Made by a program: the position numbers and the translations under genes
Assembly (NCBI GenBank): GCA_964187785.1
Contig: OZ076410.1
Span: forward strand, 51,274,001-51,338,000
Length of the DNA stretch: 64,000 bases
Reading direction: 5' to 3'
Source of the DNA: Amphiscolops sp. MND2022
Taxonomy: Eukaryota
The notes under the pieces: generated by a model
What the model was told of the DNA's origin: nothing
The model's database searches: none
What the model saw: only the letters and a program-made list of their open reading frames with translations
Part shown: positions 1-44,918 of the stretch, piece after piece
How the letters are laid out: each line of letters begins with the position of its first letter
Numbering within the stretch: the stretch's first letter is position 1

Positions 1-90
1 AAAAAATCTAGGCCATGAAAATATGACCATGAAAAGACATGTAAAGTATTATTCATGAAAACCTAATGGATCGAGGATTGTCAGACTTAC

Positions 91-223
91 CAATAGCAGG
101 TTAGAGTTTCAACGCATCAGCTTCTCTTTCCCGTACATCTGCTTCTGAGAAAACATACTGAGTCTCATTACCACTTTGTGCCCCCAAATCAAGCACACGA
201 GACGGATCAGGATCAGAGTCCAT
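91..223 (-). pseudogene. First coding exon of the antisense accessory gene, family 1 (one internal stop)
   Basis: MDSDPDPSRVLDLGAQSGNETQYVFSEADVREREADALKL*PAI followed by a phase-1 G|GTAAGT donor at 90. Homologous to the exon at 15250-15385. Confidence 0.75.
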
Positions 224-678
224 CAAAAATAAAAGCAAATCTGAAAACAAATTTCGATGATGAAAACAACAATCGAATTTGACGTCATCAAAACGATGAC
301 AAAATTTAAAGTTGGCCAATCACCAACGAAACTGACGTCGGCATAACGTCAACAAAAAGGTTATCAGCGTTAAATCATTAATCCTATAACCTAAAATGAC
401 GTCACTATAACAGTGACAAACGAATTAGAAGCTAGTTATGTGCTAACGAAACTGACGTCAGCATAACGTTGACAAGGTTGGCCAAGTGAATTATTCATTT
501 CGCTGCCGATAAAAACGTGACGTTGGCATAACGTCAACACTCAGGAATAAAGAAAAAATTAAAACGATTGACAAACGAATCAGAATGGAGGGATTTATCC
601 TAACATTCTCCCTAATCCTAATTTTTCCTAAAATCAATTGTCAAACAATCAGGTTACAAGCGACAGCTGAACAACAAA

Positions 679-1431
679 TTGAGCAACATCAGAGACGTTT
701 ATGAACTCGTGGACATCTCCTCTGCCGAAGAAGTGGAAAACATGGAAGTTTTGAAAGAAAGGGAAAGGACTTCTACCCATGTCCCAAGGAACTATCTAGA
801 AAACTACAGCATTGTACTGGAAATATCCCATTCCACAACGGGAGCTTTAGCTGATAAAGAGGAATTTTTTGATATCTCTGCTGATTCGTTGGAATCCAAC
901 TGCAAACGAATGAGGATTCGAGTCTTGAATTATTAAACCCAGAAGATTACCACAACTCGTCTGTTAAATCCACTCACAGCGCAATGATAGAAAGCCCAGA
1001 AAGCCCAGATTTACTAGAAGACAGTGGCGAACGTGATGCTGACGACAATTCAGGGATATTCATAGTAGGAAGCCATAGACCTGCCAGCACAGAATCCGTT
1101 ACGAGTGCAGTCATAGCACTTTTTCCGGATCAAGTAAAGGAAGACTCCCATTTTGTCACTGCCCCTGGACCGCTGAAGAAAGAGAATGTATAAAAACAGT
1201 AAGTCCTCTAAACGATCGGAGGAAGAGAGACTACAAGGACGCTGCTACTCCGATACTCGTCTTTCAATTGCGAAACCCGGCAGAGCCAACTTCCCGACAA
1301 CAGCGGCCCTGTCACAGCCCGCTCCCGGCGTGTGGTTGCCGATGACTGAGAATTGGAAGAGAACACGGAGGTTATTTGAGCTTTCCAAAGTAGTATTTCA
1401 ACTGGTTAACTTAAAACTAACTTATAAATAA
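679..1431 (+). pseudogene. Sense accessory ORF (acidic, unknown function), frameshifted, family 1
   Basis: ORF pieces 679-936, 984-1193 and 1186-1431. FDISADSLESNCKRMRI, SGIFIVG and TAALSQPAP match segments at 15625-16402. Confidence 0.55.
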
Positions 1432-1545
1432 ATTGTGACTAGAAGTACAAAACACACAACTATCCTACACAAATCCCAAATGAAATTGAAAATAGGAAAC
1501 GAATTCGGCCAGAAAAATTTCCACGCATTTCCGGCAAGACGTTTT

Positions 1546-3490
1546 TGTTACGTCAGGAAAGGAACATTCGGTACCTGAAATTGGAACCAAAACTACGTCT
1601 CAGGATCGAAATCATAGTTTAATCTAAATAAAAAACAGATGCGGAATTATCTCTAAAAGGAGCGCATATCCAAATTCTAAAATGAAAACCACTTTGAAAT
1701 ACAGGTTAAGAAATTATGCCGTGTCAAAATAAGGCTAGTTAATTGCGTTTGAACAGCATTTAGTGTGTTTTAGAACGGCGATGCTGCGTTAAGTAAATAA
1801 AGGCGGTTGTGAGAACAAACATAAATTTGACGTCACAACTTCGTCTAGGCATACCAAGAAATCATTCCAATTATCCACCATGGCTACGCCACTGCCTCTG
1901 GTGGTCAAACTTTAGGTAGAAATTTTACGTCCACGCTACGTCCACTATATTCGTGGACCTAATCCAAATAAGAGTTTACGTCCGTTTTACGTCCAAAACC
2001 CATCGAAATAGTTGTTTTAACCCATCTAAAGCCCCGAAATTGATAATAGTTAAATTAATCTGGGATAAGGGAGGGATATGTTTAGAATACTTGTGATTTG
2101 AATAAAGAATTGATAAAGACCTGAGAAATTAACGTCAGCACTTCGTCGTAAAGAATAATACTAACCTAAAATCGCTCTAGGAGTTAACATAAGCGAAATT
2201 TCCTCAAGATATACGAGCAAAAGTCACAGTTTATAGTTACAAACAAAATGTACCTGTTGGATATTGTTTTGGAGATGTGTTTTTCGTATGTTTGTATTCA
2301 TATATCCAATTCCTTAGCCATGTGTTTCGTGAAGTTGATCATAATTCTACTCTACAGGGGTTTGTCGCAGACGATCCCAAAACTTGCTTACCAAACTGTT
2401 GCTTTTATAACAAGGCAGTTTTTACTAATTCACAAACTTGTCGTGATCATTGCGTCAGGTTAAAAGCTGCTAAACGTATATTGATTTGTGTCTTAATTGT
2501 TGCAAATTTTGTTTTTGTTATTTTTCTAATTGTTCACTTTTCCAGTTCTTTCAAACTATTTTCCTAGCATCACTCAAATAATCATAACTCAAGTATTAGT
2601 CATAGCATTCGCTCAAGTTAAAATTCAATCAGGTATTAGTTGTTCACGTCAGCGTCATCTCAGCGTCGAACCAACGCAGTAAAACAGGGAATCATATCCG
2701 GTTTGACAGACTGAAGTAATATTTACTTCCTGCTTGGGAGGAAACAAAAGGACGCCGGGATGAAATGATATGATCAAGTTTGATGACTAATACTAGGTTA
2801 GAAGTGTCGTGTCTTAAACTTTGACGAAGCATCGACGTAAAATTGGGAACAAAATGATTTTTTCTTCGAAGATACAGGAAATGACTAATTACTTGGGGAA
2901 ATTTGGAGATTTGATGGTGATCAAAGGTGCTTGGAGGGTACAAATACCATGTGCGATGATGATTAAGGGACTCAATCTTTTCTCACTTAGGAAATTGAGC
3001 TGTTTTTATCTCGCTCGTCTCTAATCTTTATTCTCAACTTTGATAAAAATATCAGTGATCAAGAAAACTTGAAGCTGAGTGTTTTTCAAAGATGTCTACA
3101 ACAAGAAGCCAGAAAAGCAAGAACAATCAACAGGAGAGCTCTGGGAGCGTTAGTGAGTATTTAGTTTCACCGTTTGTAACAGAAAACAATCATTCCTTTG
3201 ATCAGGACGTCAGTTTTCCGGGACCTTCGAGGGCAAAATCCCCAAGGGTCGAAAGTAGCATCTTGGAAACTTTGAGGACCACTTTGAAGGATGAGATAAC
3301 GTCTGAACTCGAGAACTTTTTAGCAGATTCCCAAAAGGAGATATCGAGATTGCTTAAAGCTAAAACAAACACCAATGTTAGAGAGGAGCCCGATGAAGAT
3401 ACCGGAAACGAACCTAGAAGTTTCTATACACCTACTGAGTCAGTTAGAATAAATTCTAGTCAAAACAACGACCCTTGTGGTAGTCGTAAC
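1546..3490 (+). repeat. LTR, family 1 (about 1.95 kb)
   Basis: Inverted termini TGTTACG...CGTAAC. It ends with ...NDPCGSRN, the same way the family 2 LTRs end with ...LEPGCSRN. Confidence 0.7.
3092..3490 (+). pseudogene. gag: gag N-terminus encoded inside the LTR (truncated at the LTR end)
   Basis: MSTTRSQK...LRTTLKDEITSEL...TPTESVRINS...SRN parallels MSIRSQK...TLRKEITEEL...TPVRIRS...SRN of family 2. Confidence 0.65.
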
Positions 3491-4678
3491 GTTGAAGAAG
3501 TACAAGTTCAAACTGATAGTGACAAAGGGTGAAATCCGAGATGGTTTTACGCTGACATACAGCTGGGCGCCTAACCGCTTAGCGCAAGAGTTGGTTTTTA
3601 AACTTCAATCGACATAATGAGTTTCGCGACACTTTGGCTAAACTGTTAGAAGAAGTTTGTTTCCATGTTGAGATTGATCCAAATCTTCAGCCTCTTCACG
3701 GAGAAAGTTTTTTTCAAAAAAAACAACGAGTACTGAAGATGAAGCAAGATTAGATTTCAGGGCAAAAGGACTCTGGAAGTCGAGATTCAGTTGCATCATT
3801 TTTGACGTAGAACTTGTCCCCTCCACTTACCAGAGGCGGCGGGAAAAAAACATTCCCTTCATTAAACAAGTTTCGATTTTGTAAAAACTTTAATTGAAGT
3901 ATCTTGAAAAGAAACTGAGTGATTTTGTACTAAGCTGCTGAATCCAACAGGTTAATTTGTTTGCGTATTATGTTCGACTATTGTGACATTGTTAGCTTTT
4001 GAACTTCAATGTTTTATATGTGTTACCAAGAATGTTCAACGATGTATTTGATGCATTTTGATAGTCAAAAATATAATGTGTTTTGCTGTCCAATGAAATT
4101 ATCTCTTGGGCGATGTATGATTTTCAATACCGATTTTCTTCACGAGTTTTTGGATTTGACAAAGCCATAAACGTTGTCATCATCTTTGTGTCAAGTAGAG
4201 GACATGACAAACCCAACCGTTGTCTAAAAACAAAGATATACAGCTGCTCCAGTACCAGGAAGCATAGGTTCCAGTAACAAGAATACTAGTTGGCAACCAA
4301 ATGAACTCACAGTATACATCATAGGAATAGCTAAACGTTTCGAAGGTGTTCAGTTCATTTGTTTCTTAGTGTAACTAATTACAATCCTTTGTTTCAATCT
4401 TGACTCAATTTTATTCAACTCTGTGTCACTGTCTGCTCCAGGACTGGCATGTTTCTGCCGGAGAGTACAGTTTGGGAGAGGACAAAGTTGTCTAATGTCA
4501 GATAAGTGCTGCTGGAATTAAAACGATTTTGAATTAATAACAGTAGAATAGACTGTGACCAAAGAAAAACACATTCATAGGGAGAAAACTAAGCGGCATA
4601 CTAAAAAAATATAATTCTAACATACTGATAAAATGGCAATTTTCAACAGCTAGGACTAACGCACGTCGCAAACTTTAC

Positions 4679-6505
4679 TGTTGAGAAATGAAACTCAAAG
4701 AACTACTAAAATTGCCTAAGCGAGTTTTTCGATGAACGGAATTTAATCCCAGTGGGATTTCTTCTCAATCAGCACTTTGAGAATAGATATGCGATTTGAA
4801 GTTTCAGTGGCTTTGTTAACAAAAAAACGCGCTTATGATGAAAACTACCCGCAAATACCACACTAAGTGAACAAGTAGTCCAATCAGCTAACAGTACTGA
4901 TCAATGAATAACGTCGCGTTTACGTCACTCACTCAATAAGAATGAAAGAATAACCAACGTCGCTTTTACGTCACGCTCGTGATGCTCACTTAATAATAAC
5001 GGAACAATAGTCTGCGTCACAACTACGTCACTGTTGTACTAGTCCGAATAAAACATGCCACGTCAACGCTGCGTCAAATGTAAATGTTTTTATTAACAGG
5101 TCTCATCAAAGGATGCGCTCATGTAATTTCGTATAGGTAACTAGCCATTTCCTAAGACATTTCGAATTGCTCTAATGTAATTCCGAAAGATTTGATATAT
5201 GATACTCGTATAATGCTCAAGGTTACAGTTAATTGATAACTAATACTAGAAAACTCAATACCCGCCATATTCTAATGATTCAGAAACCTAATCGTCGCTT
5301 TGAAGTTTAATTGATGTTGAATTAATGTTGTGTTGAATTGGTTAATCGTTGCATTGAACTTATTTTCTGAGAAAGTGACCCGATACGGGAAAACGTCTCA
5401 TTAACGTTGCTATGTCAGTGAAGCAGTTTAAGTTAAACCGCACGTCATGCGTGCGTCAGCAAAGTGTTGTTTTCCTGTGATTTCTATAACTTTAATCATC
5501 GATAAGTGTATCAAAGTGTAAATCTCCTTGTCGAAAACGAAACCTTCATTTTCTCCTAGTTTCAAACCAAAGACAATTAGCCGATAAAAAAATCCTCCAT
5601 CAATTTTATGAATACTTTTCTTCCACTAATATTGAATATTCTGTTCACGCAACTTCAGCGGTTCTGAATCTCTCCCGCCATTTCACGATCAAATTGGGTT
5701 GCTTCGGTGATAATGAAAAATCAAAATGAATCACATATCCGGTTTAGCTACTTTTCCCGCGAAATCTTATCCCTTCTAAGGAACTTCCCGCATCCGTTAC
5801 AGGCAAGTTGTTGCGATCATGATGCTACTTGTGAAATGGTTTGAGATCGTTCTTACTTTTCCCGGATAAGACGAATGTTGGGCGTTTCATCGGGGACGCC
5901 TGCATGAACGAATGACGCTAGGAGGGTATATAAACGTAGGAAAGTTAGGAGATTTCACTTAATTTTCATTCTCAAATGTTTTTAGAAAGTTTGTTCTAGC
6001 CTTTGTATTACTGTAAATTGGACTTCTTGAAGATTGTGATTGCAATTCTCAAAACAATCTGCTGGTTGATTATTTCTTGTTCAACAAAATTTCTCGAAAC
6101 CTGAGGATTTATGTCGATCAGAAGCCAGAAAAAGAGAGCTACAAGCCAAGAAGTAGAGGAACCGGAGCGTACGGATCGAGTTTCCCCAAAAGTTTTCAGT
6201 ACTGAGTTTAGGAAAATTGTTGATAACGTCCCTTCCACGTCAACTGATGAAATTGTAACCCAAAACTTCAGTGATAACCCAAAAACTAAAATCTACCCTA
6301 AGAAAAGAGATTACCAAGGAAATAAAAGCTATGTTCGCTCAGTCCTAAAAAGCAATCATACAAGCACTTAGACCGGCAAATAGAGACGATACTGAAATGA
6401 TCAATTTAGACCAAGAGATCACTCCAGTTAGAATACGCTCTTCACCCAACAAGACCGTACGCTTTAACAACGTCGAAAATCTTGAACCCGGTTGTTCTCG
6501 TAACA
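4679..6505 (+). repeat. 5' LTR, family 2
   Basis: Starts TGTTGAGA, ends CTCGTAACA. Colinear with 16563-18440 and followed directly by a TGG-starting PBS. Confidence 0.82.
5927..5934 (+). promoter_or_regulatory. Putative TATA box of the LTR promoter
   Basis: GGG-TATATAAA about 180 bp upstream of the gag ATG. The 3' LTR has GGGTATTTATA near 17860 at the equivalent site. Confidence 0.5.
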
Positions 6506-7276
6506 TGGTGACAGGAGTCCCTAACGACCCTACTCACCCCAACAAAAAAAAACAAAAACCGCACACAAAGCCAATCTCCAGCCGAGGAACGTCCAAACAT
6601 CACCAAAACACTATTCAGCACATCAAGCCAAATGAACACCAACAATGCATTCCCATTGCCCAAGGCCCTCACAATTTCACTACCAACTTTCGACGGTAAG
6701 TGCTAAAAATTCGAATTATCCGAAGATTTTTTCCGAAACAACCTCAAAATGTATCCCCACCTCACTGAAACACAGAAGATAAACTATTTCCACTCCCTCC
6801 TACGGGGCGAGTCATTACAAGCTTTTCGCAACCTTGACGACACTAAAAAAGATAGTTTAGAAGACATAAAAACGACCTTTAAACGTCGATTTGGAGACTA
6901 CTTATCAATGGCCAAAGATTGGTGCGAATGGTACACACTTAAAGTTGACCCATCCACTCAAAAACTACTTGAATTCCTCGACTCACTACAAAAAACAGCG
7001 AAAGAAGCGTTTGGAGCTCAAGCCCAACAATTTATCGACAAGGCAATGCCTAACCACGTGAAAAAGATACTCAACCGCGCATATCTAGAGGACAAACTTT
7101 ACAACGACATTGTTCTCCACCTCGAAAGAGAAATGAGACACAACGGTCTAGGTGCTCCTGACGACGTCATTTTAGTCCCACTGAATCACATTGAAATAAC
7201 AACGGCATCAACCACGAAAGACGAGCCAAAACGACGTTTCTGTTGCTACTGCTACAAATATGGACATTATAATTGA
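6111..7276 (+). pseudogene. gag: gag (frameshifted; starts in the LTR and reads through the PBS)
   Basis: ORF pieces 6111-6371, 6397-6699 and 6749-7276. Capsid-like QKINYFHSLLRGESLQ...KRRFG and a truncated zinc knuckle CCYCYKYGH. Confidence 0.85.
6506..6520 (+). promoter_or_regulatory. Primer binding site
   Basis: TGGTGACAGGAG immediately after the LTR end ...TAACA and absent after the 3' LTR. The first 7 nt match the canonical tRNA-Trp PBS (TGGTGAC). Confidence 0.7.
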
Positions 7277-8130
7277 CGACCAAGTAGACTCAGGTGCATA
7301 CATCCACGCCATATCATGGTCAGACTATATCATGATCAAAACCAACACTGAAAATGGCATCATAAAAGAGTACCTCCAACCTCCTTTCCGAATTGAGTGT
7401 GCAAATGCCCAAATAGAACAACCGATCGTTACAGCAGACGTACAATTCAACATTGGAACGTACTTTTTTACTGATACATTCGTTGTATTGTCACGCACAT
7501 CATTTCCTATAATCGGACTCAATTTCGTGAGAAATCACCAAGCCCTGCTCGACACAGCAAACGGCACCATAACGTTCCCACGTGTAGAAATGACGCTAGC
7601 CATGAAGGACGAAATGAAAAAATGCAATCCTCACCCCATCCAAATAAGGACCAACGGAACACAGACGGTACCAGCACAACAAACTCTAACCGTCAATGCC
7701 GTAGCTATAACCAATATTGAACGCCCTATCACAGGCACAATACAACCACAACCTCAATTCGACGCAGATGCCCAAATCACAGTGGCTCCCGCTCTAGCCA
7801 CTCCTGATAACAAAAAAATCAAAATGAGTGTCGTGAACATCACGGACACCCCCTACACAATACCCACCGAGACAAAAAATAGCTGAACTACAGATACTCA
7901 AACCAGGTGACACAAAAAACATACGCCCAAGTAACGTCGCAGCACTCAAACTACTAGAAGACCCCAACAGTCACGTATGTGAACGAAGTAATGAAAACTG
8001 TTTCTGACCCTTCTGAAACAGACGGATTCTGGTTCCTGACCCCAGAGAACCCTGGGAACGAAGCCGAACTTACGCCCATCCAATAACGCATCCTCAAAGA
8101 AATCAGAGAATTAGAACAAAAAGAAAATTA
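7260..8130 (+). pseudogene. pol: pol: aspartic protease plus beta-rich linker
   Basis: VDSGA active-site motif and IIGLNFV (the G-x-x-F flap-distal motif). Confidence 0.85.
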
Positions 8131-8172
8131 AATCGCACCAAGGTCAGCGAGGCACGCGAACTCTTCCTCAAA

Positions 8173-9128
8173 ATGTTCCAATGGGAAGACTCCCTCATAC
8201 AGGGAGAAGAAAAACAACAACTTGAGGATGTAATAATAGAATACAACGACATTTTTGCACGTCACCGCCTCGACACAGGCATCAACAATGATTTCAAAAT
8301 AAAATTAACACCAAAGAATGAGAACCCAGTATACACACAAACTCTACCCGTGCCGATCAACCTCAAAGAAGACCTCACAGTTGAGCTAGCCTCAATGCAT
8401 AGATGTGGGATCATAACGACACTGCCATTCCCAAAGAATGCACGTCCCATCTTTGCACAACGCATGCCTAACGGCAAACTGCGACTACTGGTAGGTCTGA
8501 GGAAAACGAACGCATTGATGTCAGACGACTACATAAACAATAACCATCTCTTAAGCACACTCACAGACGCAACCCAGCACCTAGCAGGGAAAAAACTATT
8601 CGGCAAACGTGATTGCTCTCAAGCGTACCATTGCCTCCAGATGGCCGACCACGATCAGTCGAACTCTTGGCGTTCAACTTCGCCACTAGATATTTCGCCT
8701 CTGAGAGACTATCGCAAGGACTCAGCAGAGCCCTTTCAGCATTCTCCAGTTTCATGAGAGAATACCTGGATAATGTAATAAAAGCAGACCAATGTGCTCA
8801 ATATGTTGATGTTATTGGCATCGCAGCCAACACGGTCGCCCATTTAATACACAACATCCGAGCAGTCTTTGAGTGCCTACGCAATGCAGGCCTGAAACTA
8901 ACAATAGAAAAATGCCACTTTGGAGTAATCAAAGTAGAATTCCTTGGGAGAACAATAACTCCCCTTGGAACAGCCCCTCAAGACCACAAAATCAAGAAAT
9001 TCCTTGCCAACGTTCCCGAAGACACGAAAACAAGTCCAACGATACATTGGATTCATCAACTGTTATTGAAACTATATACCGAGACTATCAGAGAAACTGA
9101 GGCGATTCTACAAACTTCCCAAACTTGA
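8173..9128 (+). pseudogene. pol: pol: reverse transcriptase
   Basis: PIFAQRMPNGKLRLLVGLRK, DCSQAYH, RLSQGLS, and QYVDVIG (a decayed YxDD), KCHFG...VEFLG. Confidence 0.93.
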
Positions 9129-9129
9129 A

Positions 9130-9699
9130 ACACAGCAAACAGTCGCAGAGGAATTGCTAAACGACTCCAAGGTTATCAACACAGCACTAGCAGACGCCTG
9201 TGGACTAGCACTTAAACAGCCTATTACAGGTCGCCAATACGTCATCATGGCAAATGCCAGCTTTAAAACATCGGCATAAACACTAATGATAGAAGAACAA
9301 GATGAGAAAAAACTTACTTCCAATAAGAAAACATTCGCCCCAGTAGCGTTTGGTTCAAAAGTGTTCTCGCCAGCACAACTCAAAATTTCTATATACTGCA
9401 AAGAATTCCTAGCAAGTTATCATGCATTCCTCGAGTATAGCCATATACTATGGGAAACCACACTACCCACATTAGTCATGACGGATAACAGATCTGTAAC
9501 CAGATTCTTCCAAACAATAGCAAAACCACCAACTTTATGGAACGCCTGCGATTACGTCCTCCAATTCAACTTTAGAATCACACACGTAGCAGAAATGCTC
9601 AACACGGCAGCAGATTTTCTATCTCGGTTGGAACCTAAATCAAAAGAAAAATCCAACTCACCATCCGGGAAGACATACAAAACCTCCCCATACAAATAA
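9130..9699 (+). pseudogene. pol: pol: RNase H (Ty3-type)
   Basis: ANASF (DAS motif), SIYCKEFLA, MTDNRSV, NTAADFLSR. Confidence 0.88.
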
Positions 9700-9899
9700 A
9701 AACGCAATCAACCAATGTAGCAGAAGAAGAACAACTGTTCTTCTTACCCGACGAAACAATAGAGACTGACGAAGAAACGCTAACTAGAAAACAACGTGCC
9801 AAAGAACGAGACCAATCTGAGGCCCACACCTAAACCACAGCAACAATCCAAGAAGCCAACATCATACCCATCAACAAAACGTCATTCACACTAGGAGCT

Positions 9900-10860
9900 A
9901 TCAAAGAGGACGCACGAATCAGAAGCGAACAGGACGCAGACATCATCCTGAAAACAATCAAGGCCAAACTAGCAAACGAAGAACATGACGAACACTTACT
10001 CAAAACTAACCCAACAGCACAGAAACTACTCAAACACGAAAACCGAATAATCATCAAAGACGGAATACTAATGCGCAAATATTACGGAGAAAGTTGCCAA
10101 ACCACTCACCACCAAACAATACTACCAACACAAATCAATCCCGAACTACTAAAAACCTTAAAAGGAGCGACAGCGAAACACCCAGGAATTACAAAGATGA
10201 TACAAGAGTGCCCAGCAAATGTTACCACCCAGGGTTGGCCAGACACATTAAAAAATGGGTAACAACCTGTCAGGAAGGCATCAAATACAAACGAATCAGT
10301 AAACGACAAATACGCCCCAAAAAAATCAACCCCACTGATTTTTCAATGGGACCAGAAGACATCCTCGATAATGATATACTGCCCAACTTACCGTGCTCGG
10401 CAGGATACCAACACAACATCACGATATTCTCACGTTATTTCTTCGCATACCCAACGCAAAACATGACAGCACAAACTGTGGGAAAATGTATCACTGACGT
10501 CATGACGAGACATGTTTATCTCCCCACCACAATAATTTCAGACAAGGGATCGCAATTCACAGCAGAGATGGTACAAGAAATAACCAAGATTCTAAACATA
10601 GAAATCAGACACGCAACCACAAAACATGCACAAACAATTGGCATTCTCGAAAGGACTCATGCCTCAATCAAAATTACACTAAAAATCTCATCCAAGGAAA
10701 TCAATGTGGCACAAATAAGTACAAATCGCAGTCATGAATCACAATACAACATATCACGAAATCATAGGTTGCGAACCATTAACTGTCTTCCATGGTCGCT
10801 TTCCCTACAATGCACTAGACCTTAAACTAGGGATTAAACCCCAATGACAACAACAACGTA
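9900..10860 (+). pseudogene. pol: pol: integrase (HHCC plus DDE core; C-terminus largely deleted)
   Basis: KHPGITK...TCQEGIK, DILPNLP, ISDKGSQF, IGILERTH. Confidence 0.9.
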
Positions 10861-11412
10861 AAGGGGAATTAGTCTACCCGAACCAGAAGTACTAGTACAA
10901 CACAATGACTGGTACGCCAAAGCTTGGGAATCCAATTTTGAAGACCAAAACAAGAACACAACGCCTACGGAACAAATAACCAATAGCACACCACATATTC
11001 AAGAAATCAACCTAACTGACATTAACGACGAATTAGACGAGGACACAACGTCAACTCCGGATTTTTCCATCTTAACAACCGACGAAGGTGATAACCCTTT
11101 CATTACTAACCCCCCACCCATAGAAGACTTAGACTACCAAAACGAATCATCTCCTATTTCAATAGGATATAATCCAAGAAAAGTGCCTGACTTTCGATCA
11201 CTAGACGCTATTGACATAACTCAAAACATAAAACAAATATCAGAGTCCAGACTGAACCAGCCCGACGATGTTCAATTATAACTAACTCAAATCAGAATCA
11301 GTTTATCATAAAAATTCCATTCGAACTTCAGAACAAACTAACCTTAATCATAATAAATATACAACGCAACAGTCAAAAATGATCATAAAAGTCAATCAAC
11401 CGGCAAGAGAGA

Positions 11413-14400
11413 TTACTTTGACAAATTAGAGCCACTTTGGGACTTGGATACACTCCTCGGGCCAACACGTCCTCTACCACGCTGACCAGAAGTGACAACA
11501 CGTCCCGAAGAAGAACCACCAGCTCCAAAAATTGGTGTCACAAATGCTCCTCCATCATCTTTCACAGCTTGAGGTTTAGTACCGGACTTGGCAGACACAA
11601 CGGATGACGTAGCAACAGATGATTAGGTTGTCCCAAATTTAACAATTTGGGGAGCGACGAAAACCTGACGATTTGTGGTATAAGCTGCTTTATAATGTGA
11701 CTCAGCACTCTCCACCTGATCCTGCAAATAAGAAGTGTATGCAGCATCCAATCGACGAAACAAACCAGCGAAATCTGCAGTGTACACACCATCCCAAAGA
11801 TTAAAATCTATGAAAATCTTTCTCTATGAAAGCATCAGCACCGCCCAATGACTGTCGAACCATATCAATAGTCGTCGAAGCGAAAAACGACGACTGGTCG
11901 TAGCTAGCAGAACTAACAAAAGACTGCACACTTCTCAAACATGATATCAGCAACCCAGGACGAATGACACACTCGCTAAAGTCGAAATCAATAGAGGCTG
12001 GGACGACATCTTGGTTTTCAACAAATAAACAGCACAACTGAAACACCCGCATAAGGCAATGGCGAGACTGAAAAGCAAATTGACGCATCAGATACGTCAC
12101 TACATTTTTGACATCACTGGAAACAGTCCCTCCAGACACATGCCACTGCCGAGCTTCCTCCACATAAAGCAAGAACTCAGACTTGCTCTCAGCAACTTTC
12201 CTTGACGATAACAATCCGCAGCGACCAAGACAGCCCACAAGTTTCGCAAATAAATCAAATACGACGACGTCATCTCCGTCAAGTAATAATTCTGGGCAAA
12301 AGCAATATAAGCCCTGAGAAACTGGTGACGAACAAAAAACAGTTTGATGAACCTTGTCCACGAGACGTTCCAGAAAACGACGACACTCCAGACGGAACTC
12401 TCGTCACCACTCATTTTGGCTGTCAATAGAACCTCCCAAAAGGCTGATTAACTAAGAACAGGTCGTCAGCAAAAGGGCTCATCTTCTTCACTGGTTCTGC
12501 TGTCGTATACCCTTCCCACTGATGGATATTAAGTAAACAACCAAGGGCCCGAGTCTTTACCAGCAGACAAAAAACAAAGTGACACAGCTCACTCAACAAT
12601 GAAACCCACAGTCGTCACGTCGCTGTGCCATTTTCTTGAAATTCAGGTGAACAAAAACACAACAGCTTCAACCAAACATACCAAACCACAAACCACAAGA
12701 GCAGAAAGAACAACAGAGAAGAGGACAATTGGAATCAGTCCACATAAGAACGCAGGAAGTTGCCAAACACAAATAAGCAGAAACAGCCACAATTACAATC
12801 ATGAAGAGACACACATACTTACATAACTCTAGGACCACCTGTCGGAGTCCAAGTCTAAGAGGAATTAGCTTATCGGCAAAGATCAGCCAACCAGTTCCTC
12901 TTGTCTAAAGCAGACATACATAATAAATGCAACGCAGAACAAGATGTCACAAACGGGTATAACAAAAAACGAACGTCAAAATTACGTCAACACAATACTC
13001 ACATCGTCCTTTTTGACCTTAATATGCGCCGGACCGGTATAACGAACAAAATGCTGAATGGGCTGCCACAGAGACACGAGATCTTCAACCACAGCAGGTA
13101 TATCCTCAAAGTGCATACGTCCCCGCGGACACAGCGGGGAGAATAACATGACCAAAAAGCCATTCCTCGTGGAGAGCAGTACGCAAACGTGACATCAGAT
13201 AATCAACCACTGTCACAATGTCTATCATACCAAAGATGTCCTGGTGAGCCTGTTGAATACACTTCATCAAAACAACAGGTGAAAAAAAGGGTCGGTAGGG
13301 CACAATCGTCATCCCATCGTCTCGAACAGCATTCAAACAATGACGAAGTGCTACCGACAACCGCCACTGGGAATTTCGAATCACCCACACTACTGGCGAT
13401 GCGACACAAGCATGACAGCTCAGCACGCGGCTGTCGGGCTTGAAGGTCCTTCCCCAAGAACACACACTCGCTTCAGGCGCAACTCATTCCACGTCCGCAC
13501 ATAGCAATAAACAACATCGCCCTGCTCTTTGAACTCCACACCATAATGCTTCAAGCACCCAACTGCAGAAAACACAGAACGAAGAACGCGCGGATACATT
13601 GCGTCACAGATGAGAGCCTACGAATACCAACACACCCAACAAAATACGCGTAAACTACCAGTCTTTCACAAAAAAAAGGAGAAACGGGATTCCTATCCCA
13701 CATAAAGGAAGACTTACCAAAGTATCAGGCTTGCTCCAAACGATGTGGTAAACAGGGTCGGACTCAGATAAAGCAGCTCGGAAGAAACCCACAAACGACG
13801 CAACATTGTATAGCTGCCTCCTCCTCGTAGAACTTCCGTCAAGCAACTAACCATAGTCAGAAGCGGCACCTTTGACGTAACCTGGCTTTGCTTCGACAAC
13901 TTATTTCCGGAAAATAGATAGCCGGCCGTTTTTTCTTTAGAAGGACGACTTCGGTAATCAGCCAATTGAGCATCAGTGAGAGTACTAGCTTGACGAAACT
14001 GATTGTAAACTGGCAACGTTTGTGGACGCGATAGGTTATGTCACGCTCCCAATGACGATCCGAAGCAAAATGACGGTTAATCTCTCACGACCCACGGCTC
14101 TCTATGGAAACATCTCGTTCACACATGGTACAAAAGAAGCTAGTCGACTTTCGGTTCTTGGACCCAGAGACAAACTCAGACAAAATGTCGTTGCCAGCAA
14201 CCATGTCCTTGCGAAGATGGCTACGAGAATTATACTTCCTTTTCTTCTTGGGCGTAGCAACCAAATACTCCAGTGAGTCACCAATTTCAGCAGCAACATC
14301 AGCAAGTCCTGAAAAACAAACCTCTGTCCGAACCCCTTCCCCAAATAGCCTTACGTTCAACAAATACACTACACAACTTTACCCTTTCTACAAAATGGAC

Positions 14401-15385
14401 ATACAACATAGAAACCAACCTGAAACTAACGGATCCACGGCAGTTGATTCAACCTCCGAGGCAATATGGCGACACAAACTCATCACTTGTGCGAACGTCA
14501 TCTCCACGGGCGTCCCACCAAGGAAATCACAGCGGTCAGCACACATAAAACACATAAAACAAAAAAAAACAATGAAGCTGACGGGACTGACTTCCCAACT
14601 TACCATCAAAACGCTTCCGAATGGCCTCATCTGTCAATGAAGTCGACAGCGACGACACGCGAGAACGTCCTGGGGGAGTTTCCAAAAAAACAACGCAACG
14701 TCATTGTCATCGTCATCGATTTCAGTACCACTAGACTGACAAGAGGCAAGTACGGTTGACAAACCCATAAACACTCTTAGTACTAAAACCCGGAAAAACG
14801 TCAACAAAAGAAAAATCAAAAACGAAAACCAAAACGAGCCTAATTTCAAACCAAAAAAATTTACTACGTCTAGTCTTGCGTGTTTTGACAGTAGCGGTAG
14901 AGAATTTCAATTTGTCCTGGATAGTAACTTCCACGGAACCCTCCTTTGTGTCCAGCAAGTTTCTCTCCTTCCTCTTCCTCAGTTGCCTCTGGCGGAAGTC
15001 TGAATCTCCTGGGTGGGATAACTCCTCGCGGGACCGAGTAAATTCTTTCATTCCAGGTCTAGCGGAGTAGCGTCGAGGGAGTTGCGTGGGGAGGAGCAAG
15101 AGGTTGGCGCAGAGACCACAGCAGGGACTGGAAAGAAAGAATTGAAAAGTCAAAATCGACTACCTAGTCAACAGGTATGAGTATTTGACCTGATCAATCA
15201 AGCAAAATACGATGTTAGGGCTAGATGGAATTCTCAAAATAGAACTAACCAGGGCGAAAAGGCAAATCGGTTTTTCCCCCCTCACTAAGGAAAATATCGC
15301 CGTCAGAGGAACGGTATTGAGTTTCTTCTCCACTAGCCACATCGTGCTGCACGGGCATAAAAGAAGCAGACTGCTCCTCAGACAT
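11413..15385 (-). pseudogene. Antisense multi-exon accessory gene: BED/C2H2 finger plus hAT-transposase-like protein
   Basis: ATG at 15385. Frame-consistent introns: 15128-15249 (GTTAGT..CAG), 14309-14419 (GTTGGT..CAG), 13618-13717 (GTAAGT..TAG), 12905-13002 (GTGAGT..TAG). Further GTAAGT donors at 14603 and 12822. Finger CTMC-x16-H-x5-H at about 14050-14135. hAT-like blocks. Stop codon at 11413. Confidence 0.75.
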
Positions 15386-15624
15386 TCGGACAGAACGAAA
15401 ACTCTGAAAAGAAATCAACAGATACTAAACAGTATGAAAAGCAAGCCAACGTCAAGCTCACGTCAAACAAACTGGAAATTATCAATAAAACAAAAAGAAG
15501 GAAAATGCAAAGAAACAGCCAATCAAATTCGAGGATTAGCCCTGAAGAAACGGAGACAGTTACACTTTTCAATATGCGACCAAACAAATCCTGGTACAGC
15601 ACCTACTCTTAACACTAAATAACA

Positions 15625-16402
15625 ATGGAAAATATAGAACTAATTAACCTGATTTCCCCATGCAAATCTGAATCCAACATTTAGAACTAATTAGTTCTAT
15701 GGAACCCAAATTATAGAACTAATTAATCTGATTTCCTCATGCAAATCTGAATCCAACATACAAACTACAGCTATTCCCGTGCCTAAAACAAAAGGAACAA
15801 GAAGGAAGCAAACAATAAACCTATCTTCTACCTCCCTCGACGTGGAAATCAGCGATGATGACGAGCTTGACTCGTCAATAGAAACAGTACAAGAAACCTA
15901 CAAGAGAATGAAACTAGAAAGCGATTAGAACAGCTTCATATCCCTACTGTCAGAAGAAGGCTACCCCCCATCAAATATTGAAAGTCCCTCTACTCAATCA
16001 GGATTCATAGTAGAAGGACAGGAATTAATTCATCGGATTACTACGAAGAGGGAAGCGTAAAAGACACTGGCCTGACAGCGGCAGAAGACTCCAACAAAGA
16101 GCCACTCACCTTATTTCATCACTCCACCGGGGCCACTGAAACAAGTAGATGTAAAAAAAACCAACTCACTAAACGACCTGATTAGCCCACAAGTGTCATT
16201 ATCGTCACGACGATCAGAGAGAGAGGCAGTTTACCAAGTGTACAAGCAGACGTCACCCGCTCGTCAGCCATTTATGAGACAGTTTCAACCCATGACAGTG
16301 GCCCTGTCACAGTCAGTTCCAGAACTGGCATATTCTTGCCGAAGAATACAGTTTGGGAGAGGACATGGTTGTCTAATGTTAGCTAAGTACTGTTGGTATT
16401 AA
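15625..16402 (+). pseudogene. Sense accessory ORF (acidic, unknown function), family 2
   Basis: MENIELINL...DDDELDSSIETVQETYKRMKL...SGFIVEG...TVALSQSVP. Homologous to 679-1431. Confidence 0.55.
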
Positions 16403-16562
16403 AACGATATTAACTTAATAGCAATAGAATAGACTGTGACCAAAGAAAAACACATTCATGGGGAGAAAACTAAACGGCTTACTAAAGGAAACTATTATTC
16501 TACCATACTGATAAAATGGCCCTTTTCAACAGCTACGGACTACCGCACGTCGCAAAATTTTT

Positions 16563-18440
16563 TGTTAAGAAATGAAACCCAAAGAACAATACTAAAATTG
16601 CCTTAGCGAGTTTTTGCATAAATGGAATTTAATCCCAGTGGACTTTCTATTCAATCATCTCTTTGAGAATAGATATGCGACTTGAAGTTTCAGTGGCTTT
16701 GTTAACAATAAAACACTTATTGAATATCGTCAAATAAACTACAAAGATGCCGTAATTCATTAAGACGTTTTCACCAACGCGCTTATCCTGCAAATTACCC
16801 GCAATTAACACACTAAGTGAATAAGTAGTCCAATCAACTTACAGTACTGATCAATGAAAAACGTCGCGTTTACGTCACTCACTCAATAAGAATGAAAGAA
16901 TAGCTAACGTCACGCTCGTGATGCTCACTTAATAAGAATGGAATAACAGCCTACGTCACAACTACGTCACTATTGTACTAGTCAGAATACAACATGCCAC
17001 GTCAACGCTACTTACTTCAAATGTAATCGTATTTCTTAACAGGTCTCATCAAGGATGCGCTCATGTAATTTCTTATAGGTAACTAGCCATTTCCTAAGAC
17101 ATTTCGAAATGCTCTAATGTAATTCCGAAAGATTTGATATATGATACTCGTATAATGCTCAAGGTTACAGTTATTTGATAATTAATACTAGATAACTCAA
17201 AACCCGCCATATTCTAATGATTCAGAAACCTAATCGTCGCTTTGAAGTTTAATTGATGTTGAATTTATGTTGTGTTGGATTTGTTAATCGTTCCATTGAA
17301 CTTATTTTTTGAGAAAGTGACCCGATACGGTAAAACGTCTCATTAACGTTGCTATGTCAGTGAAGCAGTTTAAATTAAACCGCACGTTATGCATGCGTCA
17401 GCAAAGTGTTGTTTTCCTGTAATTTCCATAACCTTGATCATCGATCAGTGTATCAAAGTGAAAATCGCCTTGTCGAAAACGAAACCTTCATTTTCTCCTA
17501 GTTTCAAACCAAGGGCAATTAGACGATAAAAAATCCTCCATCAATTTTATGAATACTTTTTTTCCACTAAATTTGACTATTTTGTTCACGCAACTTCAGC
17601 GGTTCTGAATCTCCCTACATTTCACGGTTAAGTTGGGTTGTTTCGGTGATAATGAAAAATCAAAATGAATCACATTTCCGGTTTAGCTACTTTTCCGCGA
17701 AATATTATCACTTTTAAGGAACTTCCCGCATCCATGACTAGAAATTTGTCGCGATCATGATGCTACTTGTGAAATGGTTTGAGATTGTTCTTACTTTTCC
17801 CGGAAATGACGAATGTTGGGCGTTCCATCGGAACGCCTGCATGAACGAATGACGCAAGGGTATTTATACGTAAGAAAACGAGGAGAATTTCTCGTAATTT
17901 TCATTATCAAATCTTGTTTAAAGTTTGTTCTAGCCTTTGTATTCCTGTAAACTGGATTTCTTGAAGATTGTAATTGCAATTCTCAAAAGAATCATTTTGT
18001 TATTTAATTCTTGTTCAACAAAATTTCTCGAAAGTTCTCGAGAACTTGTGTCTACCAGAAGCCAGAAAGGAAAGCTGTAAGTCAAGAAGAAGAGGAACCG
18101 GAGTGTACGGATCAAAATCCCCCGAAAGTTTTCAGTACTGAGTTTAGGACATTTGTTGATAACGTCCCTTCCACGTCAACTGATGAAAATGTAACCCAAA
18201 ACTTCAGTGAGTTTGAGAATCTAAAATCCACCCTAAGAAAAGAGATTACTGAGGAACTAAAAGCTCTGTTCGCTCAGTCTTGGAAAGCAACCATACGAGC
18301 AATTAGACAGGCAAATAGAAACGATACTGAAATGATCAACTTAGACCCAGAGATCACTCCAGTTAGAATACGCTCTTCACTCAACAAGACCATACGCTCT
18401 AACAACGTCGAAAATCTTGAACCCGGTTGTCCTCGTAACA
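16563..18440 (+). repeat. 3' LTR, family 2 (contains a gag N-terminal ORF at about 18050-18440)
   Basis: Starts TGTTAAGA, ends CTCGTAACA. Colinear with 4679-6505 but with many substitutions and indels. Confidence 0.85.
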
Positions 18441-19589
18441 ATCTGAATTACCCTAACTTTTGTTTACATTCGATTCTTCCGTGTGTTGGCAAGGAGGGCT
18501 CAAAACGTCGTCTGCCGACACAAATTGCAAGTCTCAGGTGTTACCTGCTTGCTATAGCTGTGGTCATCAGCTACACTTGTCGAAAAAACTCTATCATTTT
18601 TGAGTGATTTGTTAAATATTCTTGCTTCAAGAAGACTTCCATTGCCGAATTTGATGTTCTGGATGTCTCTTCTATCTGCCACCAGCGCATCCCAGCACAT
18701 ACAGCAATCGTCTCAGTCCTGTTCCCAGCTACGCAGTTTTGTTTGTTGTAACATGGAGGTTAGGCCCGTCACGAATTTTCATGATTGCTGAAACTGTAAG
18801 CTCTGCTTCACACTTCAGAGTCTGTGTTTCTCAAAACATGAGACTCTGTGCTTTTCAAGACATCCGCGTCTAGTAATAGCTGGACATCAGCGAACTTTTT
18901 TGTACCCTCGAAAAACTGCCAAACGCGTTTTTTTAGTACAGACGTTGTTGAGACGTCCAAAGTTGCATTTTTTTCATAAATTTTTTCAAGTTTTGGAGCT
19001 TTTTGAGCAGCTTGTTTTTGAATTTGTTGTTGGGTGCTAATTTTTTGAAGTTTTTTTTCTTTTGACCTGGGTGAAAGGGCGATAAATCGAAGTTCGATTT
19101 CCCGCTACTTGTTTGATATTCTGCCTCATAAGAATACTGATGCAAAGAGAATGTAGCTTCTTTTGAGACAATTTGAGAAAAAACGGATTGAGAGAAATTG
19201 CAAAAACGTAGTTTTTTGCAGAACACATTGCAAAACACAGAGTTTTTAACCAGGAGAACAAAAATTCAATGTAGTAGGGGTTGAACAAATTCAATTCGGT
19301 TATCATTACGCAATTCAAAGATATTTGTGAAATTTCAAGAATATCATCCTGTTTAGTGCATGCAATGTGTTGGAAATCTTGTAGATTTTTTTCTGAGAAC
19401 GCTTTTTACATGTAGACACACAGCGTCGAAATTCACAGCCTCGAAAATAAGTTTTTGGTCCCACAGGGTCGAAAGCAAATTTCTGGCTGAATAACCAGTC
19501 AAAACTTTTTGCATTGAGCTAATCACATTACAAAAAAATGATAACAGCACAACCGGCGAAATAATTACGATATTGTAATCAGCCATGCT

Positions 19590-19810
19590 CACATACCCCT
19601 AGTTTCCTGAAAGCAGGAGCGAAGCGACCTGTCATATGGCTATGCCTCAATGTTGCTACTTGGCGAAGGAAGCAAAGCGACCGAGCCATACAACAAATAG
19701 GCTACATTATTTATTGTGTTAAACAATTTATATTCGACGCTGTTGAACAAAATATTTAATTTCGACGCTGTGTGAACGATTCTTCATTTTCGACGCTGTT
19801 GATACGAACA
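19590..19810. mobile_element. End of a non-autonomous repeat (possibly Helentron/HINE-like)
   Basis: CCCCTAGT..CCTG-AAAG-CAGG-AGCGAAGCGAC plus AATGTTGCTACTTGG...GAGCCATACAACA and repeated TTCGACGC. Related copies near 41740, 43050 (minus), 43865 and 44690. Confidence 0.45.
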
Positions 19811-22849: not shown

Positions 22850-23736
22850 TTATTTGATTTGCAGCAAGGTGAGCTTGTACCAGAATCGAGAAGTCTGAAG
22901 GGTTTTCTGCATAATTCACGTCCTCTATAATGGAGATATGTGAAACTATCCTTTGTTCAACTTGAGTGTAACTTGGCCAACTTATAGACGACACACTGGG
23001 TGATCCAAATAACTGTTGTGCGGACCTAGACTGATCCAAGGGAGTACCAGGGGTCTTTTCCAAGGGAGTATTTATGTATTATGCGAAGTTGCTTCCATTT
23101 GAAACTAAACGGAGTCAAAATTTTTTCAACCTTTCGTTTAGAGCAACTGAGTTTCTGACAGACAGCTTTTTGTCAATTTGAGAAGAAATCACCGTTATGT
23201 CAAATGAGACTGTTTTCTAGCCAATGTTTGGATTGAAGGGTGAAAGTTCAATCCGCGCCATGATCGATCAAACTTCGAACCAATTTAAAGACGCTTTATC
23301 AATCGACTGTGGTGTTTTATTATTAATAATAAAGTGTAATCTTCAAAATTTAATGAACATACATTGTTATTATTTATTTCCGATAATGTTTTAAAGAATA
23401 ATGTAGTTATTGAAAAAGTAGTGCATAACAATGTTCATAGATTTGCGGATGTGCTACTTAGATTTGAATACAGATGAACTCATTTAAGTACGGTTTTCAA
23501 ATCAACTGTGAAATTAATTTCTTACTGACGTGCAAATCTTCGTTTTTTGGTTCAAAATAAAGGATCAATCTGAAGTATGAAATAGTTTAAGCTATTTGGC
23601 ATAACAGGAATTGAAGTGTTGCCCATCTTAAACCGAGTTTGCAAAGAATGACCAATGTGTTTCAAAGTTTGAAAACGCCCATGCGTTTCCGAAATGGCGT
23701 TAACTTGATGATCTGTCCAGATACATGAAATGGAAA

Positions 23737-29676: not shown

Positions 29677-29909
29677 TTAGCAAGTTCTGTTTCAAATTCC
29701 GACAGCAACGAACAAGTTTCAGAAGCAGATGAAGAAGCATATCTGGTTGTTTTTGTGGGTTAAGCAGAGCATCATGAGTTCTTGGATGTAAGTGGAGATG
29801 TTTCCGCCTCGCAGATACGAGTGTCCTGCACCACTGTTAGCAGCAGCGAAATAGAGTAGGAGCCGCGGCGGAAAACAGTAAATCTAGGCCAAGGGCAATT
29901 GGATGGCAT

Positions 29910-40890: not shown

Positions 40891-42057
40891 GAGGAATTAT
40901 TAAATAGAAGTGTGGTTAGGGAAAACACTACTTGCAGGAAATTTCTATTTGATAAGCATTCGTCTGAACCAATAATACAACAATTAGTTTAACATAATTA
41001 ACAAATAGTCTAACATACGAGTAATAACAACTACATAGACATATTACATTCAAAACAGTCGAATAATTTTTTGAGACATCTCAATGAAGCCAACTGCTGA
41101 ATTACACTTTGAGGTTGATTGTTGTACCTTCGGTGGGGTGTGATAGTATTGCCAATCAGATGGTGCCACAGGATTGTTCTTCGGTCTTTCTTCAAATCAT
41201 CAGACTTGAGATAGCTGTAAACGCCTTTGACATGTTAACGGCGTCTGGATTGAGGCTCTACCGACCGGCGTGGACGAGTTCTCGTAGTGGTCTACGAAAA
41301 TTGAATTGAACATCATCAAAAAAATTGTACAGTGAACTGGCCGCTTTATTCTTGAGCTAATGGACTTTCTGAAGTCGTCTGATCTGCACAGCAATTGCCG
41401 TATTTCCTGCGGACCAAAACACTGTTCAACTAAAGCTAGTGTTCGTTAGAAGGGACGTAGCAAAAGGACATCATCTAAAAAAGGCAATATATTAAGACAA
41501 GACATATAAAGTAATTGTAAACATCACAATATGTTTTGTCATGTTAACCACGAAACAATTGAAGCATTCGTGCAGCAGATCGAAGATATTTGGTGGTATT
41601 CCGTTGCGGTTCAAACCTTAAGCGTCGGAAATTAAGTGCATCGAAAATTTGCAAGCTAATTGTTGTGCTGAAAATTAATTAATGAACGCTTCTGATTGGT
41701 TGAAAAATAAAAAAAAAGAATTGAATATAGCTATCCTTGAATGTTGCTAATTGGTGGAGGGAGCGAAGCGACAGAGCCATTCAACAAAAATAGTAAACAT
41801 TGCGTGAGATTTTTTTGTTGTTGTTTCTTGAACTTTTCGGCAAAACTTCAATTCAGCTTCGGTCTTGAAGAGGTTGTTTTTAGCCATTGCTTAAGTTAGA
41901 GACAAGTAACGCAAAACTTTTGGGCCAAATTAGACCGAATGACTTGAAGCCACGTGACTTGTGAACTACAAAAACTATAATTTCGACGCACTGAATGCAA
42001 TTGTTTAACTTCGACGCAATGAATCGCCTCATTCCGTTCCGTTGACAAAAAAGACTA

Positions 42058-43045: not shown

Positions 43046-43328
43046 CTTCGCTTCGCTCCTGCATTCAGGGCACTAGGGGTTTGTGAACATATCTGACTAC
43101 AATATAAAATTTTCGATCCGAGTTGTTTCGATCCCATTCAAAAATTCGGTATGTCGACCTGAGGACTAACTCTGATTTCCGATCCCGTTCCTTCGACCTA
43201 TTTCCGCCCACCCACAAACATTTACAAGAACATCAACAAAAAACAAATACTCGAAATATATATTATATTCTATATATAATGATAGCCTTATTGTTAACTT
43301 AATAAATAGAAACATGCTTTCTACTAGA

Positions 43329-44585: not shown

Positions 44586-44918
44586 GGGGCAGAGACATTT
44601 CGTCACCAGCCATTTGGGCGACAAATATTTCTGCCCATTTCGGAGATAATAATGTCGCCCAAATGTCCCGTCAATTATGTTCACACACCCCTAGTGCCCT
44701 AAATGAAGGAGCGAAGCGACGTGCCATATCGCCATGCCTCAATGTTGCTACTTGGCGAAGGGAGCGAAGCGACCGAGCCATACAACAATTATCCTAACTT
44801 CTTTAAATATATCAGTTATATGATCAATTTCATCAACCCATTTGGTCGACACTTTTGTCGCCCATGTGACCGACGCCATATGTCACCCAAATGGCTGGTG
44901 ACGAATTGTCCCTGACCC
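44586..44918. mobile_element. MITE with about 37-bp terminal inverted repeats
   Basis: Left GGGGCAGAGACATTTCGTCACCAGCCATTTGGGCGAC; right GTCACCCAAATGGCTGGTGACGAATTGTCCCTGACCC. It interrupts a sequence that is contiguous in the copies near 58940 and 60270. Confidence 0.88.

Follow-up and report, generated by a model that had tools for sequence, protein, structure and literature searches.

A lineage-specific, fixed-spacing dimer motif in Gypsy retrotransposons of Amphiscolops as the candidate target of an antisense-encoded, hAT-transposase-like finger protein

Among the closest described systems, the accessory anti-silencing protein VANC of the Arabidopsis VANDAL elements (Mutator-like) removes DNA methylation, and its motifs have spread by tandem repeats (PMC5735166). 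TnpA of Spm/CACTA elements and other transposase-derived regulators have lost their catalytic residues and go together with clustered, family-specific motifs that co-diversify with lineages (bioRxiv 10.64898/2026.08.24.746577). The DNA-binding protein Tas/Bel1 of foamy viruses, which are retroelements, acts on response elements in the long terminal repeat (LTR) and in its own gene's promoter, which creates a positive feedback, and some Tas proteins dimerise (PMC3798896, PMC517496). Hermes, a hAT transposase, uses two BED domains for cooperative, exactly phased binding to 4-bp repeats that come in pairs, and contact is made by the loop and helix preceding the first His (PMC10368747). Antisense open reading frames (ORFs) of the plant Gypsy elements Retand and Grande (TRP28, PF04195) are predicted to encode DNA-binding proteins and have been proposed as regulators (PMC11963269). 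On the host side, the SAND proteins GMEB1/2 and DEAF1 recognise two CpG-containing half-sites, ACGT in the case of GMEB, at a flexible distance of 4–11 nt (PMC4274154). Here, we analysed 64,000 nucleotides of Amphiscolops sp. MND2022 (assembly GCA_964187785.1, contig OZ076410.1, positions 51,274,001 to 51,338,000 of the forward strand; hereafter the window), in which two Ty3/Gypsy retrotransposons, A and B, carry a spliced antisense gene and many copies of the motif ACGTC-N6-ACGTC. The motif has a fixed spacing, is conserved and is confined to its clade; eight sister clades have other fixed-spacing dimers, and the accompanying gene is conserved. Our preferred explanation, held with some reserve, is that the dimer marking each clade would be the likely site for a dimer of the element's own zinc-finger protein, which would keep cognate copies transcribed.

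Within the window, ACGTC-N6-ACGTC is a real, selected and lineage-specific cis-element. All 13 sites that a preliminary description had listed between 335 and 5457, together with those at 12973, 15449, 16861 and 16953, match the pattern [AGT]CGT[CT]-N6-[AGT]CGT[CT], and further sites missing from that list were found at 1539, 5393, 6226, 13306, 16250, 17335, 17384 and 18162 as well as on the minus strand. The fixed spacer of six was borne out too, as the plus strand contains 27 N6 sites compared with 0–5 at any other spacer from 0 to 15. For positions 1–16775, a range chosen so that the second LTR of element A is mostly left out, 20 N6 sites were counted, while 300 block-wise shuffles that kept the 5-mers gave a mean of 0.87 and a maximum of 4, none of them reaching 20. 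Exact ACGTC pairs in 1–18440 occur 11 times at a period of 11 bp and zero times at all other periods from 4 to 25. With both strands considered, 32 sites lie within 1–18440 and three in the remaining 45.6 kb. The spacers differ in sequence, as had been noted: 18 of the 20 are distinct, and the identity of flank plus spacer averages 0.29, so the sites do not constitute one tandem array; the trio at 335, 455 and 520 is partly related (0.47–0.58). A tandem-repeat artefact was ruled out by these unrelated spacers and flanks. When 19 diverged LTR relatives were compared with the window copy, identity amounted to 0.93 in the half-sites, 0.81 in the spacers, 0.76 in the rest and 0.77 at other CpGs.

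Element A is a decayed Ty3/Gypsy copy, whereas only the 3' end of element B lies within the window. The assignment to Ty3/Gypsy is based on paired LTRs, a primer-binding site and the pol order of protease, reverse transcriptase (RT), RNase H and integrase. In both elements, the spliced antisense gene sits between pol and the 3' LTR, and the first exons are homologous to each other and to that of a young relative (L070). Antisense genes in this position are also known from Retand/Grande, which encode a different protein family; the available part of PMC11963269 names no cognate DNA motif for TRP28. Within the LTRs, most of the sites are located upstream of a TATA-like word; others lie upstream of both antisense ATGs, and a small number fall within genes. 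The earlier placement in the LTRs and upstream of the antisense gene was confirmed for both locations, except that 335–535 turned out to be internal sequence and not LTR. This stretch belongs to a cluster of five sites (281, 335, 455, 520 and 563; 281..578), 58–355 bp upstream of the antisense ATG of B, several of which match the motif on both strands. The first coding exon of B occupies 101..223 on the minus strand (ATG at 223), and the gene runs on to the left of the window. Clusters of the same type are present in L070, L076, L078 and L156 and in the two non-coding derivatives L079 and L088. In element A, the nearest site (15449..15464, plus strand) is 64 bp upstream of the antisense ATG at 15385, compared with 58 bp in B, and a second one lies at 16250; the position just upstream of the ATG therefore holds for both elements. 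The 3' LTR of B (1310..3490, plus strand) carries sites at 1539, 1830, 1927, 1978, 2132, 2652 and 2823 (the last on the minus strand) and matches the 5' LTR of B, left of the window, at 88%. The 5' LTR of A (4424..6505, plus strand) has sites at 4911, 4957, 5014, 5060, 5393 and 5442, upstream of the TATA-like word at 5927, and at 6226, and its 3' LTR (16305..18440, plus strand), 87–89% identical to the 5' LTR, has sites at 16861, 16953, 17335, 17384 and 18162.

Genome-wide, the exact pattern ACGTC-N-ACGTC was counted at spacers of five, six and seven in 1.07 Gb, which gave 8,534 matches for N6 but only 1,788 for N5 and 1,558 for N7. N5 and N7 served as controls; the reversed pattern (3,381 matches) was not used for this purpose, as its half-site frequencies differ. 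The first 100 N6 matches, all from the first 16.7 Mb of contig 1, were assigned individually: 60 lie in sequence of the window's clade (AB), 16 adjoin such sequence, seven lie in clades C and D, and the 17 unassigned ones are close to the 20 expected from the N5 and N7 rates. The excess is therefore a property of these elements and not of the genome, and the anticipated enrichment in these families over unrelated DNA was found, confined to AB-clade elements in the matches checked. For the same 16.7 Mb, this confinement ruled out a genome-wide host motif.

The LTR end together with the primer-binding site has 7,449 exact matches in the genome. Of 100 primer-site matches listed, 60 were analysed, 40 of them with downstream DNA, and an antisense finger of the form CxxC-x16-H-x5-H was detected in 36 of these 40. 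Comparisons were made on 37 elements in nine RT clades, namely 34 finger-bearing elements with usable LTR pairs and three further copies; L094, L114, L098, L128, L089 and L103 were left out, having no usable LTR pair or no finger. A de novo search in the LTRs returned a separate fixed-spacing dimer for each of the nine clades, and each clade has its own finger variant. The dimers are CGTC-N7-CGTC in AB, AACG-N7-AACG in D, CAGG-N8-CAGG in E, CGYA-N6-CGYA in C, TGAC-N5-GTCA in G, GGAC-N5-GTCC in H, GGCC-N6-GGCC in I, CATC-N7-CATC in J and GACT-N9-AGTC in K. A table of motifs against clades over the 37 LTRs is nearly diagonal, with 1.8–15.5 sites per LTR in the own clade and 0–1.0 in other clades, and shifting the spacer by one to three positions leaves 0–2 sites per clade. 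Since the dimers had been found in the LTRs, the non-LTR interior was used as an out-of-sample test. Here, 35 of the 37 elements had more sites at their own spacing than on average at six neighbouring ones, copies within a clade not being independent of each other. One clade J copy holds 52 distinct sites where 1.4 are expected; they cluster in the LTR, between the genes and in the region upstream of the finger exon. Within pol, the sites exceeded synonymous-codon shuffles in seven of 23 ORFs (clades J, G and H), with 0 of 300 shuffles reaching the observed number, and no such excess was seen in three C copies, B1, K and one H copy. Clades C, J, G and I and the B-type copies also show clear enrichment in the sequence directly upstream of the antisense gene.

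Local duplication could also produce dimers as neutral by-products that are then spread by the copying of the elements, and some clusters are indeed partly tandem (335/455/520; a spacing of about 60 bp in clade J LTRs). However, the spacers and flanks of different sites are mostly unrelated, and conservation is higher in the half-sites than in the spacers. The sites also recur in non-homologous regions and, above the level of codon shuffles, in coding sequence. Neutral duplication is thus largely refuted, and of all the explanations considered we give it the least credit.

Dimeric host factors are a more serious competitor and had already been named as an option in the preliminary description. 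LTRs commonly use host factors, and in this case bZIP proteins of the CREB/ATF type or a GMEB-type SAND protein would be recruited by the ACGTC clade and other factors elsewhere, while the antisense protein would do something else. The ACGT half-sites resemble those of GMEB, and the 9 nt between the CpGs are compatible with the spacing of 4–11 nt described for GMEB1/2 (PMC4274154). Perfect TGACGTCA words occur five times in 1–18440, four times in or next to B sites (280, 397, 453 and 1828), and the sites of A are mostly upstream of the TATA-like word. Yet only two of 50 half-sites are perfect cAMP response elements (CREs; palindromic TGACGTCA), though half-CREs might still be bound, and the flexible spacing of GMEB contrasts with the rigid one observed here, where a scan of periods from 4 to 25 returned 11 only. 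The sole SAND gene found, a lower bound, combines SAND with MYND as in DEAF1 and is not GMEB-like. A GMEB-type factor would in any case explain at most one of the nine clades; as a whole, the host reading would need a separate host dimer, private to it, for every one of the nine clades, and the N6 excess is confined to clade elements in the 100 matches checked. A tandem CRE at N5 does exist, but it is common to LTR elements unrelated to this group. Some support is left for host factors, but the option is weakened, and we regard it as unlikely.

The tandem perfect CRE, TGACGTCA-TA-TGACGTCA, occurs in the LTRs of an env-bearing Gypsy family, and the same or a nearly identical word is found next to a BEL/Pao-like frame as well as within a further LTR pair (all together L240–L245, L246, L247–L248). 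This distribution over unrelated LTR elements shows an example of a host site in this genome.

CpG retention in the motif had been considered notable and linked to methylation; the first point did not hold up, and the second found no support. Segments of the window have observed-to-expected CpG ratios of 0.70–1.29, and CpG sites show no excess of C>T or G>A changes; between 37 LTR pairs, such changes number 51 of 8,636 at CpG and 235 of 40,440 elsewhere. As CpG is not decaying here, its retention is unremarkable and was ruled out as a special feature. Moreover, a core CpG is lacking in five of the nine clade dimers. For the same reasons, and because no DNMT1/3-like match surfaced, DNA demethylation of the kind described for VANC is an unlikely route of action. 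The genome search from which this follows surfaced neither a DNMT1/3 nor a GMEB match, and its results are lower bounds. It did find two DNMT2-like methylases, typed by their size and sequence, another methylase on a small contig and the SAND+MYND gene already mentioned (L249, L250/L252, L251, L253).

Within element A, the antisense gene extends over 11490..15385 on the minus strand and is broken and intron-containing, with sites at 11656, 12973 (in an intron) and 13306; its zinc finger CxxC-x16-H-x5-H (14052..14138, minus strand) has one internal stop codon. In clade E, the part from the finger to the C-terminus lies in a single frame of 792 codons (L154:7384-9759; L181–L210), whereas introns split it in the other clades. 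A profile built from clade E matches the window's gene (E down to 6.6e-25) and the genes of seven other clades, that of J by the finger only. The ratio of nonsynonymous to synonymous substitution rates (dN/dS) is 0.05–0.10 where dS was measurable, and 0.01 in one comparison of the finger. Searches by sequence gave little: Pfam holds no family for the window's antisense fragments or the young copies, searches of the PDB with the protein returned nothing useful, the ESM Atlas gave for the whole protein only leads below 0.9 (hAT/ZBED5-like) and none for the last exon, and protein searches returned only unnamed relatives. The predicted model of the clade E protein has a mean predicted local distance difference test score (pLDDT) of 78.5. 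Its ten best Foldseek rows are all Hermes transposase, and the structural comparison with Hermes yielded a Z of 14.0 and a root-mean-square deviation of 4.9 over 393 aligned residues, the next other protein reaching a Z of 6.7. The antisense product is accordingly predicted to have a hAT-transposase-like fold over most of its length. Regarding the DDE triad, no conserved Asp was seen in the columns of a 26-row alignment on the two core strands examined, which were mapped to Hermes by topology and not by a residue-level alignment, and the protein is predicted to be a catalytically dead hAT transposase.

Along the finger, the four ligands are invariant in 35 rows, and the BED family PF02892 matches three of the 35 members, with a best E of 0.0021. 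The spacing of 16 residues from Cys to His is the same as in Hermes' own BED domain. In common with Hermes and its subterminal repeats, the system has the predicted overall fold, this spacing and two 4-bp repeats in exact phasing; unlike Hermes, it has no terminal inverted repeats, its core Asp is not conserved, its sites lie in LTRs, and the finger ends in H-x5-H instead of H-x-C. AB, D, G, H and I have an E(-4)/R(-1) pair at the positions that contact DNA in Hermes, and other residues stand there in clades C, J and K and in two of three E copies, a partial fit to the proposed binding. For the finger model alone, no Foldseek match was obtained at E<=0.001 and none at Z>=5.

The gene-bearing clades can be compared with 12 gene-less relatives in three groups, which use the same primer site. 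Their best median log10 p lies between -2.8 and -3.4, compared with -4.1 to -53 in all nine gene-bearing clades, and no dimer comparable to the clade dimers was found among the 12; one of these elements (L270/L271) had been delimited at the wrong repeat pair, with flank included. The gene-less lineage is sister to clades K and J (99/100) in a tree with a very long root branch, and it probably reflects one loss of the gene. As this would be a single event, the control it provides is suggestive and unreplicated. Of this lineage, to which L089+L141, L103+L142 and L254–L273 belong, the two copies examined carry a different conserved antisense gene in several pieces and a sense env-like frame. At the other extreme, two short non-coding derivatives (L079:322-5388 and L088, the latter a tandem chain) have LTRs of 1.63 kb that are 99.7% identical and no frame of 150 amino acids. 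They keep the primer site and the cluster otherwise found upstream of the antisense gene, and their dimers are denser, one derivative having 6.8 sites per kb of LTR versus 2.3–2.4. Such derivatives are what would be expected if the factor is supplied in trans, and we infer that it acts on them in this way.

Clade-private dimers in nine finger clades, nothing comparable in the gene-less relatives and a genomic excess confined to the clade lend strong, if indirect, support to the view that the sites are bound by the element's own antisense-encoded protein, which on present sequence evidence is probably the case. Binding combined with an activating role is a narrower claim that we favour only slightly over its opposite. 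In the mechanism we propose, the antisense gene would yield a disarmed transposase that keeps its finger and its ability to self-associate, and two fingers would read two half-sites of 4–5 bp about one helical turn apart. Bound upstream of its own gene, in the LTR and at internal sites, the protein would close a feedback loop keeping cognate copies active, and protein and sites could drift together, so that lineages become insulated from each other. Activation, or escape from chromatin silencing, appears preferable to repression, because the densest clusters are on the promoter side, the derivatives show a gain of sites, and plants have factors of transposase origin that activate their cognate copies (bioRxiv 10.64898/2026.08.24.746577).

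The same protein could nevertheless bind as a repressor for copy-number control, or as a structural factor that coats complementary DNA, pairs the LTRs or tethers integration. Sites occur all along the element, in pol and intergenic gaps as well; it is in the nature of hAT transposases to keep DNA ends together (PMC10368747), and a non-coding derivative has kept the cluster although the gene is gone. A repressor or structural role does not, however, sit well with clusters that are densest in the LTR's 5' part and immediately upstream of the antisense ATG or with the plant precedent for activation, and a gain of sites in non-coding derivatives is unexpected for a repressor site. We judge this role improbable, to about the same degree as recruitment of host factors. 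Even less probable is an action on RNA, in which a matrin/U1-like finger would bind the element transcript for export or packaging. It would fit a finger model closest to RNA-binding C2H2 fingers, the strand bias of direct-repeat sites in AB, C and D, and a potential for small hairpins at the inverted dimers of G, H and K. But the fold scores of the finger are weak (Z of 4.2 at most), the rest of the protein is transposase-like, direct repeats cannot pair, and periods of 9–13 nt fit one turn of duplex DNA. Clade J sites are found on both strands (17–27 sense, 16–32 antisense), which fits double-stranded DNA as the target.

Several observations weigh against binding and activation by the element's own protein. 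The Foldseek E-values for Hermes are only 1.2e-3 to 1.9e-2, and the folded protein is that of clade E and not of the window's clade, the link to the window's gene being made by profile. The best matches of the finger model, themselves weak, are RNA-binding fingers of the matrin/U1 type (Z 3.4–4.2), ahead of the BED fingers of ZBED2 (2.4) and ZBED1 (2.0). An attempted residue-to-base code did not resolve: the E(-4)/R(-1) pair goes with five different sites in AB, D, G, H and I, so no such code is shown, and within AB the finger loop varies while the motif stays unchanged. The finger tree and the RT tree agree at clade level, and because finger and motif both follow the RT tree, their covariation is inseparable from descent; no swap of antisense genes between clades was seen among the 37 elements. 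The gene-less relatives form one lineage, with short LTRs (365–417 bp) and a long-branch root. Mildly against a strict link of gene and motif, L098 and L128 keep GGAC-N5-GTCC sites of the G/H type without a detected finger; they may be deleted or interrupted copies. Finally, D, E, H and K have little or no enrichment upstream of the antisense gene (0–3 sites), and in C, D, E, H and I the signal from a single LTR is close to shuffle noise or within it.

To judge by analogy, the proposed system works like VANC, TnpA and Tas but belongs to none of these families. As in VANC, a putative regulator is encoded by the element, a short family-specific motif is dense in non-coding regions and introns, and motif and protein differ between related families (PMC5735166). 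The family-specific motif is enriched in non-coding regions of the elements and rare elsewhere, as is typical of the VANC and TnpA systems. VANDALs, however, are plant DNA transposons, whereas here animal Gypsy retrotransposons carry a hAT-like protein and dispersed two-part sites of fixed spacing, with no sign of CpG methylation. With TnpA, the system has in common a putative regulator of transposase descent, with a predicted loss of catalytic residues, and clustered, family-specific motifs; TnpA stays in its own DNA-transposon class, while the present gene is spliced, runs antisense and belongs to a retrotransposon. The co-diversification known from these systems has a parallel in finger clades that each have their own motif, but both follow the RT tree. 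No Pfam match to VANC or TnpA was obtained in 26 members, the product being hAT-like and in a Gypsy element. Tas offers the likeness of a retroelement-encoded DNA-binding protein with sites in the LTR and upstream of its own gene, as proposed here. It differs in being a sense-strand retroviral gene, while the present gene is antisense and hAT-like and has sites in pol as well. To our knowledge, Tas has no transposase ancestry.

A full-text search, with most subscription journals and supplements outside its scope, found no Gypsy-borne, hAT-derived regulator with cognate sites. The words 'retrotransposon', 'LTR' and 'Gypsy' do not occur in the main text of bioRxiv 10.64898/2026.08.24.746577, and the available part of PMC13547354 describes no such retrotransposon system. 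A regulatory role has long been suggested for the extra antisense genes of Gypsy elements, with no target known. Candidate targets can now be read from the sequence for nine lineages, which makes the regulator idea testable by a protein-by-site cross. If the proposal is correct, an animal retrotransposon would be using a captured DNA transposase as a sequence-specific self-regulator, transposase-derived control would extend beyond DNA transposons, and a natural set of diverged finger–site pairs would be available for the study of specificity and of spacing evolution. In its most far-reaching form, to which we would give an even chance, the disarmed transposase would be the private transcription factor of thousands of Gypsy copies, with protein and site re-specified at least nine times in sequence, spacing and direct or inverted geometry. 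The resulting positive-feedback circuits, insulated from each other, would extend even to synonymous codons in pol and would be used by parasitic non-coding copies. They would form a natural series of protein–DNA pairs orthogonal to each other, as an animal, methylation-independent counterpart of VANC and TnpA.

As for the remaining features of the window, the flanks of element A, CTCTG and ATCTG, suggest a 5-bp target duplication. The primer-binding site (6506..6517, plus strand) is common to the whole group and is followed by the broken gag-pol of A (6518..11400, plus strand) in Ty3/Gypsy order, with minus-strand sites at 6871 and 11036. The gag frame starts several hundred bases within the LTR and crosses the primer site (3059-3532, 6105-6699 and 18008-18440 in the window; L069:4943-6484). 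An acidic, serine-rich sense-strand frame of 100–270 codons without a Pfam match stands right before the 3' LTR in several clades (885-1193 in the window; L070:6057-6797; L074:4885-5703). A short dispersed repeat is found in both orientations at 19570-19713, 41725-41788, 43048-43105 and 44586-44918, one copy having inverted arms of 41 nt similar to a miniature inverted-repeat transposable element. A tandem array with units of about 258 and 516 bp extends from 23600 to 29900, and the region 45300-64000 holds arrays whose units measure 1,293 and 1,330 bp and which show a strong skew of G over C (0.25–0.56).

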